DNA from: Gammaproteobacteria bacterium
GTDB taxonomy: Bacteria; Pseudomonadota; Gammaproteobacteria; Ga0077536
NCBI GenBank assembly: GCA_963662545.2
Contig: CAXXLL010000002.1
Span: forward strand, 2,208,001-2,272,000
Direction: 5' to 3'
DNA: 64,000 nucleotides
The translations under genes were made by a program, and so were the position numbers. The notes beneath the pieces are model-generated. The model was not told the DNA's origin. It searched no databases and worked only from the letters and a program-made list of their open reading frames with translations. Positions 1,320 to 17,965 of this stretch are shown here, piece by piece. The number at the start of each line of letters is the position of its first letter. The first letter of the stretch is position 1.

Positions 1320-1376
1320 CCTGGGGTGGCCCCCGGTCCAATAGTGATGCCTCGAAGGCGCGACGACCGCTAGCTA

Positions 1377-3073
1377 GTGTCCGTCCATAAACAGGCATTT
1401 TCTTCGATGGGCACGGAGAAATCGAGGTGTTGAAAGTAGGTTGTTGGAGCGGTAGCGGCGGTTCGGTGGGGGTCGAAGGGCTCTTCGAGCGTAATTGTGA
1501 GTACGTTCGCCGGCCGCAGAGCGCTGCAACCCAAAGTCGCCCGTTCGACGATATCGAGGAGGTCAGTTAGTGCGAGTGAACGTCGCTATTCGAGTTGATA
1601 GCGCGCGAGCAGGCTGAGGTTGTAGGCGACCACAGAAGACCACACGTAGGCTTCGAAGTGCGGCAGGCTCTTCCAGGTGCAACGTGCCAATCCGTATGCA
1701 CGCTTCAGGCAGGAGATACCGGCCTCGATGCCGGCGCGGAAGTTGCGCAAGCGTCGATAGACCCACTGACTCTTGACCATGTCGGCGATCGCGAGCCCGC
1801 GCTTCTTGTGGAAGGCAACGTCTTCGATGCCTTCTGCTTTCGCCGCCCGGAGATTGTCGAGGCTCGCATAGCCGCCATCGGCGGCGACCTGTCGTGGCAT
1901 CGTCCCGTAGTGTGTTCGATGCCGTTCGAGCATCGGCATGAAGCGCTGACTATCGACCGGATTGCCTCGCTCGATGACCACGTCGAGGATGAGGCCACTG
2001 CGCCCCGAAGCCAGATTGATTTTGTGTCCGTACTGAACGTCGCGCGCACCCTTTATGATGATGTCGGTATGCGGCTCGAACAAGCTCACGCACTTCTCGC
2101 TCGCGGGGACCTTCTCACCGCCGAACACCCGCCGCTCAGTTTGCGAAATCACCTGCAGAACAAGTGTTTCGTAGTGCGCTACCTGCGCTAGCCAGTCCGG
2201 CAGTTCAACGCCGGTGACGCCCGGGCTCAGCAGCTGCTCACGTACCCTCGCTACCGCTTCCAAGGTTGAACGCGTCGCCCCAATCAAATCGCGATACAGA
2301 CGTTGGCGTTGCTTCGCACCACGCGCATACCACAGCGCCCGCGCACGCTTCTTCGCCAATCGAGTGTGGTTCACGAAGCACAACTCCGGCGCGCCAGGCA
2401 ACTCGCGCGCCTGTGCGAGCAGACGAACCACAACACGCACGCCATCCCACAGCAGATGACTGTCGCTCGGCGCGTGGATGGCACTGTCCGTTACCGTGCT
2501 ATCAATCCGTACACGCTGTGCCGGCTCAATGCGCGTCTCTTTCGCCGTCGCCAGCAGGGCGCGATGAATAGACTCCCACGTCGATACCTGGATCGCCGAG
2601 ACCACCCGCTGTAAGGCAGACTTCTTCGGACGTTCATTACCCGGCAACCGGGCGAAGGCCTGAAAGCTCGCCGAGTCCTGCAGGTGAAAGGCCAGCTCCT
2701 CGTAACTCAATTGCCGGTGCTGCTTGAGCACCGCGCAGCGCAGCACCGACTCCGCCGACAGTCCGCGTCGACCGGTGGGCTTCAAACCCCGCCGACACAG
2801 ATCGTTCATGACCGGCGTGAGGACCTTGGGGTGAGCATCGAGCCACTCGGACATGCCCTGCAGCTCTCGCCCCAGGTCATGGTCAGCAAACAGCTCGTAT
2901 ATACTCGCTTGGGCCGTGCGTTTCTGACGCATTCCCCCTCCTGTGGTGTCGATGATTGTGTGGAAAATCAGAGGTTTGAAGTTCCATTAGATCACGACCT
3001 ACCGGAGGTTTCGATCCCTTAAGCGACAAATTTTCCTTTTTATTTCAACCGCATCGCGTTTAGGGATGCACAC
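1377..3073 (-). mobile_element. ISNCY-like insertion sequence, copy 1 (1697 bp)
   Basis: Imperfect terminal IRs GTGTGCATCCCTAAA / GTGTCCGTCCATAAA. Flanked by TAGCTA at 1371-1376 and 3074-3079. Near-identical copies at 7388 and 49861. Confidence 0.93.
1586..2932 (-). CDS. DDE transposase, ISNCY-like (448 aa)
   Basis: RIDSTV, AADGGY and RAGIEAGIS motifs (D-D-E). The same protein is encoded by the other complete copies. Confidence 0.92.
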   Translation of the reverse strand: MRQKRTAQASIYELFADHDLGRELQGMSEWLDAHPKVLTPVMNDLCRRGLKPTGRRGLSAESVLRCAVLKQHRQLSYEELAFHLQDSASFQAFARLPGNERPKKSALQRVVSAIQVSTWESIHRALLATAKETRIEPAQRVRIDSTVTDSAIHAPSDSHLLWDGVRVVVRLLAQARELPGAPELCFVNHTRLAKKRARALWYARGAKQRQRLYRDLIGATRSTLEAVARVREQLLSPGVTGVELPDWLAQVAHYETLVLQVISQTERRVFGGEKVPASEKCVSLFEPHTDIIIKGARDVQYGHKINLASGRSGLILDVVIERGNPVDSQRFMPMLERHRTHYGTMPRQVAADGGYASLDNLRAAKAEGIEDVAFHKKRGLAIADMVKSQWVYRRLRNFRAGIEAGISCLKRAYGLARCTWKSLPHFEAYVWSSVVAYNLSLLARYQLE

Positions 3074-3092
3074 TAGCTAAAGGAGAGAGCAG

Positions 3093-3401
3093 ATGAGAAG
3101 TGTTGCAAGCCTGGCTGTGGGGGCCTTATTCGTATTGTTCGCAGTTGGGACCACGGGTATTTCCGTTGCGGTTGCCGATGAGGATATCCAGCTGGTATTT
3201 CACATTGAAGGAATGACCTGAGGCAGCTGTGCACGGACAGTCCGTGAGACCGTCAAAATAATTGCTGGCGTGACACGCGTTCGCGTTGATTTGCAACAAA
3301 AGCGAGCCTGGGTAAGCTGCAGTTCCGAAGTGTCTGCCCAGCAAGTGGTGGCGGCAATAGAATCGAATGGAAGGTTTCAGGCAAAGCTTGTCGAAGAGTA
3401 A
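3093..3401 (+). CDS. Exported heavy-metal-associated (HMA/MerP-like) protein with in-frame TGA, candidate selenoprotein (102 aa, U43)
   Basis: RBS AGGAG at 3081, ATG at 3093, signal peptide ending AVA. The sequence reads FHIEGMT-TGA(3219-3221)-GSC and continues in the same frame as ARTVRETVKIIAGVTRVRVDLQQKRAWV...QQVVAAIESNGRFQA to TAA at 3399, matching the HMA pattern. Absent from the ORF track. Confidence 0.8.
3222..3254 (+). promoter_or_regulatory. Candidate bacterial SECIS hairpin
   Basis: CACGGA-CAG-TCCGTG stem-loop at 3232-3246, with the loop 16 nt 3' of the UGA. Possible lower pairing GGC/GUC. Confidence 0.5.
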
Positions 3402-3686
3402 CTCCCTCACACGGTGCTGTTCCAGGTCAGCAACCAGGGGACAACTTGCAGGGTTCGGTCAAAGGAATGATTTAGGCTCATCAAGGCTCCACCGGAGAGC
3501 ACGATGAGCAAGAGAAGCACGGGTCATGCGACGGCAGACGAACATCGATTCAGATTACCTCTGCAATGCGCTCGAACGCAGTTGCTCAGTAGCGTTCGAC
3601 GGTGTGACCACGACGAGCGGCGGCGACTCCTTGAATACGACCCGGAGCTTGATTTCAAAGCCTGAATATAGAAGCCGGAATGATGC

Positions 3687-5759
3687 CTATAACGCGCGGC
3701 CCAGGGTCTCGCCGTCGACCAGCACGGCCGCGACATCCCTTGGCGCCGCAACGTCGCCGATCCTCGAAACGTCGGGGAACGAAGCCTGTGCCTCGAAATA
3801 CAAATCATCGTTGGGAACACGCAGGATCGAAAGGACGACGCTGTCGATCCCGGTGCGCGTTTCGAGGGCTTCCGCGCCGGCCCAAATGTCGTAGACATCA
3901 ACTTCGTCGGTGCGGATTGCCTCGATGAAATGCTGATGGGTTATCCGGACGCCGAGTTTCTTCAAACGCGGGAAGATGTACAGCATGTCCAGGTTGCGGT
4001 AGATGCGTTCGCCTGCGTACATGCGCGGGCTCATGATTTCGACGTCCACACCTACCTTGGCAAGTATCTCGGCCAATGCAAACGGCAAATGTGCGCCGGA
4101 TTCGTCGAGGATCAACACGCGCTTGCCGAGGAGCTTCGGATCGTCGAGCGCACTCGCGGTGGCCGTACCGACGTCGAACACATGATTGAGCTCGGCGCCC
4201 GGGATCCCTTCGCGATCCGGGCGATAGAGGCTGAGCCCGGTTTTCTCGTAGGACGCGCCCGTGGCGATGACGACGGCGGATGCGTTTACCGCGCGTAGCA
4301 TGTCGATGTCAGCCTCGGTCTCTAGCCGAACCTCAACGCCGCAGTTTTCGACTTCGCGCTCGAGGTTGTCGATCGCAATCGACCAGTCGCTCATCGACGG
4401 CAGGCATTCGAGCATCCGCAGGTGTCCGCCGAGTCGCTCCCGGCGCTCGACCAGGGTCACGCTATGTCCGCGCCTGGCCGCGACGGCGCCCGCTTTCATG
4501 CCGGCCGGCCCGCCACCCACGATCAATATTTGCCGGCGCTCGGATTCCGCCACCTTTTGCAGCGAGCCGTCGCCCCAATAGGCTTCCCTACCGCTGACGG
4601 GATTCAGAGCACAGATGAGTTCGCGGTGCTCCCACAGGCGACCCGCGCATTCGTTGCAGCGATTGCAGCGAATAATTTCGTGCTCACGCCCCTCTTGCGT
4701 CTTTTTGATCGTGTGCGGATCGGTAAGCAACTGCCGCGCCATCGCGATCATGTCCGCCGATCCGTTCGCGAGAATTTCTTCTGCCTTATACAAGTCCCGG
4801 ATCTTACCGACCACGAAGACCTTGGCGCGCTCGCCCACGATCTCCTTGGCCTTTTTGCTGAACGGCTCGAGCCAGCCTTCACCTTCACCACCCACCATAC
4901 TCGGCAGCGCGAGGTGGATGGTGTGGTAACCCCCGGCCGAGATATCGAAGAAATCGAACAGTCCCGTTTCCGTCAGCACTTCGAGCTGCTCCTCCGACTG
5001 CTCCGGCGTGATACCGCCCCGTGGCCCCAGGAATTCATCCCAGGACAGGCGCAGACCGACCACGAAATCGTCACCGACCTGCTCGCGCACCTGCCCTGCT
5101 ACTTCGATCACGAGCTTACAACGCTTGGTAGGCGATCCACCGTAGGCGTCGGTGCGCTTGTTGTAGGTCGGGCTCAGAAACTGTGCAAGACCGTAGCTGT
5201 GCGCGCCGTGGATCTCGACGCCGTCCAAGCCCGCGCGTTTAACGTTGGCGGCCGATTGACCGAAATCATGTACGAGCTGTTTGATTTCCGCCGGCCCCAT
5301 GACCAGCGGCATCTCGTTGTGCATCAGCGATGGGATGCGGGACGCGCCCCAAATCGGCTTGTTCTGATCGATGAACATCCGGCCCTTGTCGTGTACGCCC
5401 ATGGACGCGAGCTGCACCATGATGCGACCGCCGTGTTCGTGTACGGCCTCGCCGAGCGCGTTCATCGAAGGTATGCATCGTTCATTGTAGACGTCGACGA
5501 TGTGATAGAAGGAACCGACCGCGCTTCGGGCCGCCGCTACCGTCTCGGTGATGCAGAGCGCGACGCCACCCTTGGCGCGTTCACTAAAATAGGCGATCTG
5601 CCGATCCGAGAAGACGTGCTCGCGTGGGTCGCCGTGCTGTGAACTGTGGGCGGGTTGCAGGATCCGATTTCGCAGCGAGAGATTCCCGAGCGTGAGGGCT
5701 TGCCATACGTGCGAAAGCTTGTTTCGGGTCGAGCCTGAGGTATTTTCGGAATCGTTCAT
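3687..5759 (-). CDS. Old-yellow-enzyme family NADH:flavin oxidoreductase with 4Fe-4S and FAD domains (DCR/TMADH-like)
   Basis: LRNRILQPAH, DGVEIHGAHSYGLAQFLSP, NKRTDAYGGS, CNRCNEC..C cluster motif and GGGPAG. Start placed at ATG 5759 after GGAG. Confidence 0.9.
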   Translation of the reverse strand: MNDSENTSGSTRNKLSHVWQALTLGNLSLRNRILQPAHSSQHGDPREHVFSDRQIAYFSERAKGGVALCITETVAAARSAVGSFYHIVDVYNERCIPSMNALGEAVHEHGGRIMVQLASMGVHDKGRMFIDQNKPIWGASRIPSLMHNEMPLVMGPAEIKQLVHDFGQSAANVKRAGLDGVEIHGAHSYGLAQFLSPTYNKRTDAYGGSPTKRCKLVIEVAGQVREQVGDDFVVGLRLSWDEFLGPRGGITPEQSEEQLEVLTETGLFDFFDISAGGYHTIHLALPSMVGGEGEGWLEPFSKKAKEIVGERAKVFVVGKIRDLYKAEEILANGSADMIAMARQLLTDPHTIKKTQEGREHEIIRCNRCNECAGRLWEHRELICALNPVSGREAYWGDGSLQKVAESERRQILIVGGGPAGMKAGAVAARRGHSVTLVERRERLGGHLRMLECLPSMSDWSIAIDNLEREVENCGVEVRLETEADIDMLRAVNASAVVIATGASYEKTGLSLYRPDREGIPGAELNHVFDVGTATASALDDPKLLGKRVLILDESGAHLPFALAEILAKVGVDVEIMSPRMYAGERIYRNLDMLYIFPRLKKLGVRITHQHFIEAIRTDEVDVYDIWAGAEALETRTGIDSVVLSILRVPNDDLYFEAQASFPDVSRIGDVAAPRDVAAVLVDGETLGRAL

Positions 5760-6281
5760 TTCATTGAATCTCCCGAGCAGGGAAGAACGACCGGGGACTG
5801 GCAAGTTAGGTAGCTCTGAGAAACCATTCCGGGATAAATCAAGCCACCAAGCTGCATATACGTCATCGATTTCCGTCAGCCATTATTCAACATGCCGTCC
5901 GTCTCTACCAACGATTCGAGCTGAGTCACCGCGCCAGTTCGACGACGGCGGGTGCAAGGGTGACGAAAATGAACGCTTCGATTGACCGAGCATACCCGTT
6001 CATACCGTGCAGCGTGGCAATGCGCGCCCAGCACAAATCATGAATAAGGGGTTAACCATTCTCCCGTTTCCACATTCCCTCCATCATTTGTGCGAATTAG
6101 CACGCTAGCGTGTCAGGGTCACGGATCGCAGGCTCGGCGCCCCAATATCCTTGAAATTCGCGATAGGAACAACGCAGCCCATGGACCGCCAAGGCTACTT
6201 TATCCACGCCACATATCGGCATCGCTTCGCTGCAACGGACCGCTGGCGTAATTACTCGATGCTCGGGAACGGAGTTGCAAT

Positions 6282-6560
6282 ATGTCTGAAACTACAAAAC
6301 GCGTGCTGCAGCGCGAGCTCTTCCAGCGATTCGAGGCGCCCGCGCTGAATGTCGTTTTTGCTCGTTATCGTCAACCCGATACCGAACCTCGCGGCGATCC
6401 GCTCTTGATGGCCGAACGCATCGCCGAACTTACCTCGTGCTCGCTCGACGAGGCCCACCGCGGAATCCGGGCCGCATTCGAGATCTACGATAATCCACGC
6501 GATGTGCAGACGCTGGTGGACGAATTTATCGGTTGTTTTGTAGTGCCGACCTTGCGCTAG
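6282..6560 (+). CDS. Hypothetical protein (92 aa)
   Basis: GGAG upstream of the ATG and plausible codon usage. No recognisable motif. Confidence 0.5.
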   Translation: MSETTKRVLQRELFQRFEAPALNVVFARYRQPDTEPRGDPLLMAERIAELTSCSLDEAHRGIRAAFEIYDNPRDVQTLVDEFIGCFVVPTLR

Positions 6561-6961
6561 TGAAGCGCACGATCGCGAGACTAAGGTGAGATCGTCCGGC
6601 CAAAAAATCTTTCGATAGCCCGGGGGCGGGGATGCCGGTGCGCGATACGCACACCTTCCACAATCCCTTCATATTTCCTCCATCGTCGCTCCTCGTTTAG
6701 CGCTCAAGATCCGTCATATGAATCGCTTCATCGCCCACGCAAGAACAAAACATGTACGCTCGGGCGGGCAGAACGTAATCAGGCGGCGTAGAAGCCTGGC
6801 GGATATCCGAGTTCCCCCAACTCTTTTGTATCCTGGCTTCACACCAGTACGCCGTCTGTTTACCCCATTCCGGCACATCGCATGACCACAAGCGCTCGTC
6901 GATGCGATGAAAGAAGGCGATCCGCTTTCGCGACCACCCCTACCAACTAAGGAGAACGGCT

Positions 6962-7375
6962 ATGTCCTTTAAACCAAAAATTATCGCCATCTGTTCGACC
7001 TTGATCTTAATGATGTCGGCACCCGCGCTTGCCGGGTTTCAGATGTCGGGTGAAGATCAACGTCCCCGCTGGGAATCGATGCCCGATGGCGAACGCGACG
7101 CGATGCGCAGCGAGCGCAAAGCACGCTGGGACTCGATGTCCGAGGAAGAACGTACAGCGAAGCGCGATGAGCGCAAGGCACGCTGGGACTCGATGTCCGA
7201 GGAAGAACGTATAGCGAGGCGCGATGAGCGCAAAGCACGCTGGGACTCGATGTCCGAGGAAGAACGTTCGGCGAAGCGCAATGAGCGCAAAGCACGCTGG
7301 GACTCAATGTCCGAGGGGGAACGTTCGACGATGAGAGAACGGCGCGGATCCGACGGAAGCAGGCGGATGCACTAA
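6962..7375 (+). CDS. Exported charged helical-repeat protein (RWDSMSEEER repeats; DUF3106-like)
   Basis: RBS TAAGGAG, signal peptide ending ALA, then 19-aa repeats ERKARWDSMSEEERxAxRD. Confidence 0.8.
   Translation: MSFKPKIIAICSTLILMMSAPALAGFQMSGEDQRPRWESMPDGERDAMRSERKARWDSMSEEERTAKRDERKARWDSMSEEERIARRDERKARWDSMSEEERSAKRNERKARWDSMSEGERSTMRERRGSDGSRRMH
7112..7326 (+). repeat. 57-bp coding tandem repeat (about 4 units)
   Basis: Units start GAGCGCAA(A/G)GCACGCTGGGACTC at 7112, 7169, 7226 and 7283. Confidence 0.92.
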
Positions 7376-7387
7376 ATTAGTTAGCTA

Positions 7388-9077
7388 GTGTGCATCCCTA
7401 AACGCGATGCGGTTGAAATAAAAAGGAAAATTTGTCGCTTAAGGGATCGAAACCTCCGTGGAACTTCAAACCTCTGATTTTCCACACAATCATCGACACC
7501 ACAGGAGGGGGAATGCGTCAGAAACGCACGGCCCAAGCGAGTATATACGAGCTGTTTGCTGACCATGACCTGGGGCGAGAGCTGCAGGGCATGTCCGAGT
7601 GGCTCGATGCTCACCCCAAGGTCCTCACGCCGGTCATGAACGATCTGTGTCGGCGGGGTTTGAAGCCCACCGGTCGACGCGGACTGTCGGCGGAGTCGGT
7701 GCTGCGCTGCGCGGTGCTCAAGCAGCACCGGCAATTGAGTTACGAGGAGCTGGCCTTTCACCTGCAGGACTCGGCGAGCTTTCAGGCCTTCGCCCGGTTG
7801 CCGGGTAATGAACGTCCGAAGAAGTCTGCCTTACAGCGGGTGGTCTCGGCGATCCAGGTATCGACGTGGGAGTCTATTCATCGCGCCCTGCTGGCGACGG
7901 CGAAAGAGACGCGCATTGAGCCGGCACAGCGTGTACGGATTGATAGCACGGTAACGGACAGTGCCATCCACGCGCCGAGCGACAGTCATCTGCTGTGGGA
8001 TGGCGTGCGTGTTGTGGTTCGTCTGCTCGCACAGGCGCGCGAGTTGCCTGGCGCGCCGGAGTTGTGCTTCGTGAACCACACTCGATTGGCGAAGAAGCGT
8101 GCGCGGGCGCTGTGGTATGCGCGTGGTGCGAAGCAACGCCAACGTCTGTATCGCGATTTGATTGGGGCGACGCGTTCAACCTTGGAAGCGGTAGCGAGGG
8201 TACGTGAGCAGCTGCTGAGCCCGGGCGTCACCGGCGTTGAACTGCCGGACTGGCTAGCGCAGGTAGCGCACTACGAAACACTTGTTCTGCAGGTGATTTC
8301 GCAAACTGAGCGGCGGGTGTTCGGCGGTGAGAAGGTCCCCGCGAGCGAGAAGTGCGTGAGCTTGTTCGAGCCGCATACCGACATCATCATAAAGGGTGCG
8401 CGCGACGTTCAGTACGGACACAAAATCAATCTGGCTTCGGGGCGCAGTGGCCTCATCCTCGACGTGGTCATCGAGCGAGGCAATCCGGTCGATAGTCAGC
8501 GCTTCATGCCGATGCTCGAACGGCATCGAACACACTACGGGACGATGCCACGACAGGTCGCCGCCGATGGCGGCTATGCGAGCCTCGACAATCTCCGGGC
8601 GGCGAAAGCAGAAGGCATCGAAGACGTTGCCTTCCACAAGAAGCGCGGGCTCGCGATCGCCGACATGGTCAAGAGTCAGTGGGTCTATCGACGCTTGCGC
8701 AACTTCCGCGCCGGCATCGAGGCCGGTATCTCCTGCCTGAAGCGTGCATACGGATTGGCACGTTGCACCTGGAAGAGCCTGCCGCACTTCGAAGCCTACG
8801 TGTGGTCTTCTGTGGTCGCCTACAACCTCAGCCTGCTCGCGCGCTATCAACTCGAATAGCGACGTTCACTCGCACTAACTGACCTCCTCGATATCGTCGA
8901 ACGGGCGACTTTGGGTTGCAGCGCTCTGCGGCCGGCGAACGTAACAATTACGCTCACAATTACGCTCGAAGAGCCCTTCGACCCCCACCGAACCGCCGCT
9001 ACCGCTCCAACAACCTACTTTCAACACCTCGATTTCTCCGTGCCCATCGAAGAAAATGCCTGTTTATGGACGGACAC
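7388..9077 (+). mobile_element. ISNCY-like insertion sequence, copy 2 (1690 bp)
   Basis: Same IRs, with TAGCTA at 7382-7387 and 9078-9083. Relative to copy 1 it has a 16-bp deletion near the left end and a 9-bp duplication (ACAATTACG) near 8944. Confidence 0.93.
7513..8859 (+). CDS. DDE transposase, ISNCY-like (448 aa)
   Basis: Same protein as 1586-2932. RBS AGGAGG precedes ATG 7513. Confidence 0.92.
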   Translation: MRQKRTAQASIYELFADHDLGRELQGMSEWLDAHPKVLTPVMNDLCRRGLKPTGRRGLSAESVLRCAVLKQHRQLSYEELAFHLQDSASFQAFARLPGNERPKKSALQRVVSAIQVSTWESIHRALLATAKETRIEPAQRVRIDSTVTDSAIHAPSDSHLLWDGVRVVVRLLAQARELPGAPELCFVNHTRLAKKRARALWYARGAKQRQRLYRDLIGATRSTLEAVARVREQLLSPGVTGVELPDWLAQVAHYETLVLQVISQTERRVFGGEKVPASEKCVSLFEPHTDIIIKGARDVQYGHKINLASGRSGLILDVVIERGNPVDSQRFMPMLERHRTHYGTMPRQVAADGGYASLDNLRAAKAEGIEDVAFHKKRGLAIADMVKSQWVYRRLRNFRAGIEAGISCLKRAYGLARCTWKSLPHFEAYVWSSVVAYNLSLLARYQLE

Positions 9078-9324
9078 TAGCTACCAAAATTCGTTGCAAA
9101 ATTCGGGCGCCGACGATCCACCTAAACTCAAGCGACCTAAATCGAAGGGTTTATGGGTATCGCGTTCATTGGGTGTCTCGAAAATCGACACGTCCACCGT
9201 GTTAAGTCAAATAAGTCAACTCCGGCCCCCCCACCCGCCGTGTTTAGTCAATTAAGTCCCGGCTGGCACCCGCCCCCGTGCTCGGCGCAGTGGTACTCGA
9301 AGTCCGCGACGGACTGCTTGGGAT

Positions 9325-17116: not shown

Positions 17117-17965
17117 TCAATGGCACTTTTCTTTGATGCCGCGCTTCAACATGAAGTAATTGACGGGATAACCGGCCGCGTAGCCGGCGACTACCGCGAT
17201 GGCCATCGCGATCCAGAATTGCGTCGTGAAAATCGAACCGGCCGTCATGCCACCGACCAGATAGTCGACTGCGTTCATCGCGATCTCCATCGTGCCGATC
17301 GAGATGGACTCGCCCAGCCACACGAGCTTAAAGGCCGCCCCGACAGCCATCCCCTGGCGCAAGGTGAGTGGGATCAGGGTCAGGGAGAATCCACTGATGA
17401 AGGCGAGCGCGGTCGCGAAAAGTGCGATCGCCACAGGGGGCCAGCCGAGGGCGACACCGATCAACAGCCCAATGCTCTCACCGATCACACAACCGGTCAG
17501 GCAGTGCAGAGTTGCGGACGCGACGAGGCCGGTGCTGAAGACGGTCTTTGGGGATGGTACGTCGATGTGTTCTTCGGTCATCGTCATGTTTCGATCGCTC
17601 GGTTCTGCGGGAACGGCATCGCCCGCCTTGCGTAAAAGATTTAGTACCAAGGTACGGACGCGCGGGTCAATATAAACGGATTGTTCGTCGAATGCCCCTA
17701 ACAGTGCACGCAGGTCGACATCTCGCGAATCCTGGAACGTGGGCGTTGCGGGGTATTTCCCAGGGCGCGTACCGGAGTCGACCTTAGCGATTCGTACGCC
17801 CTCTGCCTCGCTCCATAAAAAAGCGTGTTCTTCTGCACCACTGGATACCGTCAATTGTAGCGAAGCGACCACGTCCGTTTCGCTGTCCCACACGAACAGG
17901 TCCAAGGCATCGCCCTGGAACCAACGGGCGCCGTCCGGCGTCTGCGTTTCGATTTCTCGCATCAT
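17117..17965 (-). CDS. Two-part ORF: soluble hypothetical domain fused to DUF4396-like membrane domain
   Basis: The C-terminal half has ATLHCLTGCVIGE, ESISIGTMEIAMN and YPVNYFML with 4 TM segments. The N-terminal ~125 aa is hydrophilic. Confidence 0.7.
   Translation of the reverse strand: MMREIETQTPDGARWFQGDALDLFVWDSETDVVASLQLTVSSGAEEHAFLWSEAEGVRIAKVDSGTRPGKYPATPTFQDSRDVDLRALLGAFDEQSVYIDPRVRTLVLNLLRKAGDAVPAEPSDRNMTMTEEHIDVPSPKTVFSTGLVASATLHCLTGCVIGESIGLLIGVALGWPPVAIALFATALAFISGFSLTLIPLTLRQGMAVGAAFKLVWLGESISIGTMEIAMNAVDYLVGGMTAGSIFTTQFWIAMAIAVVAGYAAGYPVNYFMLKRGIKEKCH

Follow-up and report, generated by a model that had tools for sequence, protein, structure and literature searches.

Does the interrupted reading frame at positions 3093-3401 encode a selenoprotein, or is it an ordinary metal-binding protein gene broken by a nonsense mutation? 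The window, the whole stretch of DNA that was analysed, is 64,000 nt long and corresponds to G000:C2:2208001-2272000, where G000 is the source genome (5.58 Mb); G002 denotes a genome from the same genus. A first-pass annotation, made from the letters alone, had proposed an exported HMA selenoprotein hidden from gene callers, with a hairpin directing selenocysteine (Sec) insertion. The parts of the gene are as follows.

3093-3401, forward strand: very likely selenoprotein gene, 102 codons plus stop, for a predicted exported single-HMA protein with U43-x-x-C46 and C76
3080-3085, forward strand: Shine-Dalgarno AAGGAG, 7 nt upstream of ATG 3093, recognized from the sequence
3093-3176, forward strand: predicted Sec-type signal peptide, residues 1-28, cleavage between AVA and DE, assigned by inspection
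3219-3221, forward strand: UGA very probably decoded as selenocysteine (U43), aligned with the first Cys of GMTCxxC; based on homologue conservation
3228-3230, forward strand: Cys46, predicted second ligand of the UxxC motif, invariant
3318-3320, forward strand: invariant Cys76, which closes strand beta-3 beside the metal loop and may be a third ligand or a resolving Cys

The frame runs from ATG 3093 to TAA 3399-3401, and the TGA at 3219-3221 is the only one in frame. Translation table 11 breaks it into two frames, 3093-3221 (42 aa) and 3270-3401 (43 aa), the second starting with GTG. With TGA read as U, the result is a single 102-aa protein, MRSVASLAVGALFVLFAVGTTGISVAVA/DEDIQLVFHIEGMT-U-GSC-ARTVRE... 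(the slash marks the predicted cleavage site), in which the context of U43 is EGMT-U-GSC. The ribosome-binding site named by the first-pass annotation is present; the same AAGGAG is found in the second copy of the gene in this genome (hereafter the paralog) and in G002, and its first base is the last base of an IS repeat arm that ends at 3080. The proposed signal peptide also has the look of a Sec-type signal by inspection, with an MRS start, a hydrophobic run and AVA before DE. Positions -3 and -1 of the cleavage site, A26 and A28, are invariant in 14 relatives, and so are G40, M41, U43, C46, V50-R51-E52 and C76. Judging by its signal peptide, the protein is very probably exported.

The claim that the HMA domain is complete, with the TGA at the first Cys of GMTCxxC as its only break, agrees with the Pfam HMA model (PF00403), which matches residues 35-93 across the TGA with 44.6 bits against a cut-off of 24.8 and thereby places the protein in the HMA family. 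AlphaFold2, run with an alignment of relatives, predicts a beta-alpha-beta-beta-alpha-beta domain at residues 32-99 (pLDDT at least 95), while residues 1-26 are unstructured. The Foldseek matches of this model are ATP7A/B metal-binding domains, CopZ and MerP (1osd), with TM scores of 0.8-0.9. In alignments to ATP7B domains and CopZ, U43 occupies the position of the first Cys of GMTCxxC, and in profile alignments Cys76 aligns with a Tyr of ATP7B domains. In HMA structures the position equivalent to Cys76 packs against the metal loop. In the model of the present protein, Cys76 may plausibly serve as a third soft ligand or as a resolving Cys.

The first clue regarding the nature of the TGA comes from homologues. 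All 16 full-length relatives (the genome's second copy, one copy in G002 and 13 metagenome loci), 57-81% identical, have TGA at codon 43, and one partial locus does as well. The paralog (C2:1529965-1530270, 79% amino acid identity) and the G002 copy (about 80%) each contain one TGA, in the same column. The metagenome scan was seeded with two peptide patterns that excluded the Sec codon, and it returned 25 loci. Thirteen of them are full-length at 57-68% identity, every one with TGA, and the partial locus L141 also has TGA; the UGA contexts in the metagenome loci are GMY-U-GSC, GMT-U-GSC, GMR-U-GNC, GMR-U-GMC and GMT-U-SSC. More distant HMA loci from the same scan, at most 41% identical, have Cys at codon 43 in 11 of 11 cases.

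Other collections give the same picture. Among 61 related genomes, G000 included, the other matches are at most 35% identical and have no stops; of 401 genomes sampled from the phylum, G000 alone, in its two copies, has a full-length match with TGA. A collection of 5.8 billion proteins contains no near-length relative, only three clusters of 42-residue N-terminal fragments, 81-98% identical. A HMMER search of 1.84 billion representatives gave 3254 matches, of which the best 150 are at most 41% identical and mostly multi-HMA proteins; no Cys-form relative above 41% identity is among these 150. A contig scan with the Cys-containing pattern FHIEGMTC, which is biased to Cys forms, returned 45 loci at no more than 51% identity over the best segment. 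In short contigs from 4 runs of 4 studies, the differences listed include none at 3219-3221 and 40 elsewhere, with 11 more outside the list; we give this comparison no weight. As far as seen from these sequences, the clade appears to be Sec-only among the relatives found, its members being truncated in annotation. Since gene callers cut these genes at the UGA, the family is invisible to annotation, as the first-pass annotation had anticipated for the window gene.

Is the part of the frame after the UGA translated? Nei-Gojobori dN/dS was calculated for codons 44-102. It is 0.08 between the window gene and the paralog, 0.08 between the window gene and the G002 copy, and 0.19 between the paralog and the G002 copy, with dS of 0.47-0.68 among these three genus copies. 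Among seven subclade representatives, with the codons of the SECIS excluded, 13 of 21 pairs were computable and have a median dN/dS of 0.15 and a maximum of 0.29; in the remaining 8 pairs synonymous sites are saturated, and pN is 0.21-0.28. Overall, dN/dS downstream of the TGA is 0.06-0.29, with 0.06-0.08 for the window gene against the paralog. A local control is provided by a decayed merT-like remnant beside the paralog, for which the comparison of the paralog locus with G002 gives a dN/dS of 1.00. On this comparative evidence, purifying selection shows that translation continues past the UGA.

The genome also has the machinery for Sec insertion, which the first-pass annotation had suggested looking for. 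The tRNA-Sec, at 62.2 bits, exceeds the gathering score of 47 and is called tRNA-SeC with anticodon tca by ARAGORN, so selC is present; selB (417 bits), selA (587 bits) and selD (283 bits) are all above curated cut-offs and free of internal stops. TGA is the commonest stop, ending 1529 of the 2926 open frames of at least 300 codons. Therefore, UGA is recoded locally rather than through an altered code. The selD match, C2:1272288-1273199 on the reverse strand, belongs to an open frame of 761 aa and may therefore be part of a fusion protein; Ndh-SelD fusions are mentioned in the available part of the GOS paper (PMC2398784).

Two hairpins overlap downstream of the UGA, and they are mutually exclusive.

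3232-3246, forward strand: hairpin of the first-pass annotation, CACGGA/CAG/UCCGUG, 6 bp, stems 3232-3237/3241-3246, loop 3238-3240, 16 nt from UGA to loop; centroid of the local fold
3236-3254, forward strand: proposed SECIS apical hairpin, stems 3236-3242/3248-3254, loop CGUGA at 3243-3247

Bacterial SECIS elements are stem-loops about 16-37 nt after the UGA with G/U in the apical loop (bSECISearch literature). The 6-bp hairpin exists as the first-pass annotation described it, but its role as a conserved SECIS does not stand. Its loop is 3 nt (CAG or CGG), without GU; across the family only 69% of cells are paired, 7 and 8 of the 12 distinct sequences lacking pairs 14-28 and 17-25, respectively; and it is complete only in the three genus copies. 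Thus, while the homologues do keep the TGA, the distant ones do not keep this hairpin. It is no more stable than shuffled sequences (z +1.10 and -0.23), and in 48-nt folds of the genus copies it is preferred over the hairpin at 3236-3254.

The hairpin at 3236-3254 fits the description of a bacterial SECIS, with 21 nt between the UGA and the CGUGA loop. Its pairing is kept in 89% of cells over 12 distinct sequences, compared with 19-48% for slid controls. Synonymous diversity over 15 distinct sequences drops from a pS of 0.52 overall to 0.07 in 6-codon windows from codons 49-50; the collapse spans codons 49-55, and outside the trough around codons 46-52 the lowest pS is 0.27. The frozen stretch, GTC CGT GAG nCC GTC, is the region that forms the hairpin. 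In all 7 sequences folded, this hairpin is the minimum free energy (MFE) structure of the 23-nt stretch, in 2 of them in a bulged-U, GUGA-loop register. In the window copy it is weak (-5.4 kcal/mol) and has one A.C mismatch (3239/3251), which family member L121 shares. Folding energy alone singles out neither hairpin in the window copy, and an Rfam search of 2950-3550 (E up to 5) gave two chance snoRNA-like matches only. Over the 12 distinct sequences no compensatory double change was found in any pair of either hairpin; the support for a SECIS is conservation without covariation. We propose on these grounds that the conserved SECIS is the 3236-3254 hairpin and not the one at 3232-3246.

Other selenoprotein genes in the genome were sought by two scans, one blind to hairpins (a TGA flanked on either side by coding potential, together with a redox motif) and one led by hairpins. 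Together they yielded at least 10 further probable selenoprotein genes, located in G000 as follows.

C2:1242747-1243838, C2:1394608-1395726, C3:2095538-2096185, C2:936104-937243, C2:1219199-1220098
C3:590797-591351, C3:2120132-2120683, C2:1763979-1764527, C2:938684-939151, C2:1605084-1605728

Three genes match NF041238 AhpD_rel_CFYUT, with TGA read as U, at 343, 352 and 205 bits (cut-off 175); selA directly follows one of these genes. One gene matches NF041054 WAxxUGC_long at 294.8 bits against a cut-off of 300. The other six, below cut-offs, are PrdB-like, YciW-related (CxxU), two exported peroxiredoxin-like (TxxU) and two WUPxC peroxiredoxin-like. Among the seven genes found by the hairpin-blind scan, four have a C[CG(U/G)GN]G hairpin at 15-33 nt, and a fifth has one with a bulge. 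When 48-nt segments were folded, the MFE structures of 6 of the 10 genes contained a hairpin whose 5-nt N-G-U-N-N loop begins 17-25 nt past the UGA; those of the other 4 did not. Downstream of the UGA, most of the ten carry a CGUGN loop closed by a C-G pair. This loop-and-stem type occurs 280 times genome-wide on both strands, giving an expectation of about 5e-4 per TGA at 15-33 nt, and both HMA copies carry a hairpin of the C[CG(U/G)GN]G type. Formate dehydrogenase was considered as a SECIS reference and dropped: the genome has 10 matches to TIGR01553, all of them free of internal stops. A repeated element, 'LPLC-TGA-AVRA', gives identical in-frame-TGA matches in at least 12 places (for example, C3:1526146 and C2:1453017). 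Rather than a selenoprotein, this is probably an IS translated in an incorrect or antisense frame.

The neighbourhood of the window gene is shaped by two IS copies of about 1.7 kb.

1371-3080, reverse strand: IS copy with a DDE transposase at 1586-2932, abutting the ribosome-binding site of the gene
7381-9083, forward strand: second, inverted IS copy, identical within three repeat arms

Each encodes a 448-aa transposase (DDE_Tnp_1/DUF772), and they differ only by small indels near the ends. The pair brackets 3081-7380 in the manner of a composite transposon, with the Sec-HMA gene, an OYE/FAD oxidoreductase gene (3687-5804, reverse strand) and a repeat-protein gene inside. The last of these, at 6962-7375 on the forward strand, contains four tandem repeats of 57 nt (..ERKARWDSMSEEER..) and encodes 137 aa; the product begins with what resembles a signal peptide and has no significant Pfam family. 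Homology between the window copy and the paralog spans only 3078-3457. Since it begins at 3078, the IS end has replaced everything upstream of the ribosome-binding site, and the identity of the IS copies suggests a recent insertion 12 nt before the ATG. A promoter scan found nothing upstream of the ATG and one site within the gene; on the forward strand, no terminator was detected beyond the stop, and none of the sequencing runs listed is an RNA run containing this stretch. The paralog has a catabolic neighbourhood (PQQ dehydrogenase, acyl-CoA dehydrogenase, AMP-ligase, nitroreductase, SDR and P450) whose synteny with G002 extends over 8.9 kb at 89% identity.

Some relatives have a partner gene. 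In 5 of the 13 metagenome loci (L117, L118 and L127-L129), an intact merT-like gene lies directly upstream and ends 8-20 nt before the HMA gene. Its product is a membrane protein of 123-132 aa with a GTTCCALP motif and a weak match to MerT (25.8 bits against the Pfam cut-off of 32.9; 1e-6 for NCBIfam MerT). Six loci lack the merT-like gene, and L121 has only a truncated form of it; L141 meets the contig edge at this point, and remnants are present in L120, at the paralog locus and, as judged by eye, in G002. The remnant upstream of the paralog is at C2:1529791-1529949 (L086 7585-7953), and that of G002 at L087 6056-6358. At the window gene, the IS copy stands in place of whatever lay upstream. 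In the metagenome locus L120 (2-667 and 675-962), a second exported HMA protein, of the ordinary Cys type (GMTCPFC), and a small membrane protein with a WCCIAP motif precede the Sec-HMA gene. In the genome, neither MerT (PF02411) nor MerA (TIGR02053) has a match above curated cut-offs, and no metal operon was found in the rest of the window. A DUF4396 membrane protein gene (17117-17962, reverse strand) is the only one in the first 39 kb with a conceivable link to metal handling; the other genes there are for oxidoreductases, a CoA-transferase, an amidase and exosortase/EPS functions.

How does this family relate to known systems? None of the 14 members reaches the cut-off of any curated NCBIfam model; the best models are CopZ_AFE_1862 and NF041115 UxxU_metal_bind, at about 1e-16. 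Comparison with MerP (TIGR02052; PDB 1afi and 1osd) shows clear parallels: both have a signal peptide ahead of one HMA domain of roughly 70 residues and carry the metal motif on the loop preceding helix 1, the TM score to 1osd is 0.90, and 5 of 13 metagenome relatives have a merT-like gene immediately before the HMA gene. However, the Sec-HMA family has Sec for the first Cys and an additional invariant Cys76, and its TIGR02052 score is 33.5 bits against a cut-off of 92.55. Nor was a mer operon found: the distant merT-like gene is present in those 5 of 13 relatives, and the source genome has a remnant or an IS in its place. CopZ/Atx1 chaperones (NF047957 and NF033795; PDB 2qif and 6ff2) are the best sequence-model and fold matches, but all are below cut-offs (57.2 against 85), and CopZ is cytoplasmic, lacks a signal peptide and uses Cys. 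ATP7B domains have an aromatic residue at the position of Cys76.

Several HMA-related selenoproteins are already known: the available parts of PMC9312934 and PMC13188914 list a cation-transporting ATPase (UxxC), NF041115 (UxxU) and a putative mercuric transport protein. NF041115, whose family is called 'putative mercuric reductase' in the same portions of these two papers, is likewise a small HMA-type selenoprotein, and its profile aligns end to end with residues 33-102. However, the score of 56.1 bits falls short of the cut-off of 95, as do the scores of all 14 members, and the present family has one Sec (UxxC) rather than two. NF045683, a MerT/CopZ fusion-like selenoprotein, joins in one protein a membrane part resembling MerT and an HMA part with Sec, which some relatives of the window gene encode as separate adjacent genes. 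It differs in that the HMA protein studied here is unfused, has its own signal peptide and has lost its partner in the genome, and the score is 29.4 bits against a cut-off of 375. The cation-transporting ATPase shares the UxxC in an HMA-type metal-binding motif, but there the motif is part of a large cytoplasmic-facing P-type ATPase, whereas the window protein is predicted to be a free exported domain. A 'Mercuric transport protein MerP' selenoprotein, a Sec-containing MerP, is described in the GOS survey (PMC2398784). We rejected it as the same family: the accessible part of that paper gives two identical 33-residue fragments (..GTUCQSG..) without visible likeness to the Sec-HMA family or to the HMA motif. 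The UGSC-containing protein NF041046 was also set aside, being absent from the matches at E up to 1; it and the window protein have only the U-G-S-C motif in common, and relatives of the latter have UGNC, UGMC or USSC. The lists in the accessible parts of PMC9312934 and PMC13188914 include no exported UxxC HMA family, and our literature search turned up nothing closer than the HMA-related selenoproteins in those parts of these two papers and of PMC2398784.

With these data the alternatives can be compared. The nonsense mutation in an ordinary MerP/CopZ-like gene, raised as a caveat in the first-pass annotation, would need only one substitution (TGC or TGT to TGA) in a region rich in IS elements. 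It is already contradicted and retains the slightest probability of all readings: the TGA persists in all full-length relatives down to 57% identity, the genome has complete selABCD, no near-length relative exists in the 5.8 billion proteins and no closely related Cys form is among the best 150 of 3254 representative matches, and purifying selection after the TGA is strong, whereas the truly decayed merT-like remnant beside the paralog evolves at a dN/dS of 1.00. The synonymous divergence of the homologues (pS up to 0.98) means that they are not copies of one recent pseudogene. It is also very improbable that the UGA is read as Trp, Cys or Gly by near-cognate decoding or under an altered code. 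The selection data do leave room for this, in that they establish translation past the UGA and not the residue inserted; against it are the status of TGA as the commonest stop of long frames, the complete Sec machinery, and the coincidence of the UGA with a metal-ligand Cys position, together with a SECIS-type hairpin that is shared with curated selenoprotein families. We therefore regard the locus as a genuine selenoprotein gene with high confidence, as the first-pass annotation had it.

Two further alternatives accept the selenoprotein and concern its activity. The window copy may be a recently silenced passenger, in which the IS insertion at 3080 removed the promoter, so that only the paralog is expressed. 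The identity of the IS copies within the repeat arms, the start of homology at 3078, the lack of a promoter-like site upstream of the ATG and the A.C mismatch in the SECIS are all consistent with silencing. We nevertheless find it unlikely, because the frame, ribosome-binding site, UGA and SECIS are intact, dN/dS against the paralog is only 0.06-0.08, and the mismatch recurs in L121. Moreover, outward promoters are common at IS ends. The main alternative to a metal role, to which we give a similarly low weight, is redox or chalcogen chemistry in an exported selenoprotein, with U43 and C46 forming a selenylsulfide that C76 would resolve, a cycle known from UxxC selenoproteins of the thiol-oxidoreductase kind. 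Most bacterial UxxC selenoproteins are redox proteins according to the portions available of PMC9312934 and PMC13188914, the other selenoproteins of this genome are Prx-, AhpD- and TlpA-like, and MerP itself can form a C-C disulfide (the title of PDB 1osd reads 'oxidized MerP'); in addition, the source genome has no metal genes near the gene, which was retained after its merT-like partner decayed. However, the fold is that of HMA and not thioredoxin-like, the curated models that come closest describe metal chaperones and metal-binding selenoproteins, and a merT-like gene directly precedes the HMA gene in 5 of 13 metagenome relatives. The fold and these merT-like neighbours make soft-metal binding the somewhat favoured function. 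The metal itself may be Hg, Cu or Ag.

Taken as a whole, the best explanation, and a very probable one, is an intact, exported HMA selenoprotein whose Sec is inserted under SECIS control and which would capture a soft metal. SelB and tRNA-Sec would decode the UGA at 3219-3221 as selenocysteine, directed by the hairpin at 3236-3254, with its 7-bp stem and CGUGA loop 21 nt downstream of the UGA, a type also seen after the UGA of other selenoprotein genes in this genome. After export and cleavage of the signal peptide, a beta-alpha-beta-beta-alpha-beta domain of about 74 residues would remain, presenting the selenolate of U43 and the thiolate of C46 on the loop before helix 1, with Cys76 beside the loop at the end of beta-3. 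Most probably it would serve in the periplasm to bind a soft metal ion with high affinity, as a capture or buffering protein. In the family ancestor, the metal was probably passed to the MerT-like membrane protein encoded directly upstream; in the genus of G000, this partner would have decayed and the Sec-HMA protein would act alone. It seems that the family originally supplied the MerP-like member of a merT/merP-like pair and that, in the genus, it persisted after merT was lost.

HMA selenoproteins as such were known before; what is new here is the family, its Sec-only habit, the third Cys and the SECIS. An exported, single-Sec HMA family with three cysteine positions joins the short list of metal-handling selenoproteins. 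Its partner history can be followed, since the merT-like gene is intact in some relatives and decayed at the paralog (dN/dS 1.0), while the Sec gene is constrained. The SECIS signature specific to this genome, a short stem closed by a C-G pair, with a CGUGN loop that lies 17-25 nt downstream of the UGA, could serve to complete the selenoproteome of the lineage. More tentatively, and with the odds against it, these proteins may constitute a family of obligately Se-dependent periplasmic metallochaperones with an Se,S,S site (U43, C46 and C76), derived from the MerP-like partner of a MerT-like importer and kept by selection after the importer was lost in several lineages, the source genus included. 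If that were true, the protein would have a stand-alone role in marine and host-associated bacteria, for example very-high-affinity scavenging or buffering of Hg, Cu, Ag or a metalloid held by three soft ligands. If the Se,S,S coordination were true, the family would offer a natural test case for what selenium gains in metal binding as opposed to redox catalysis.
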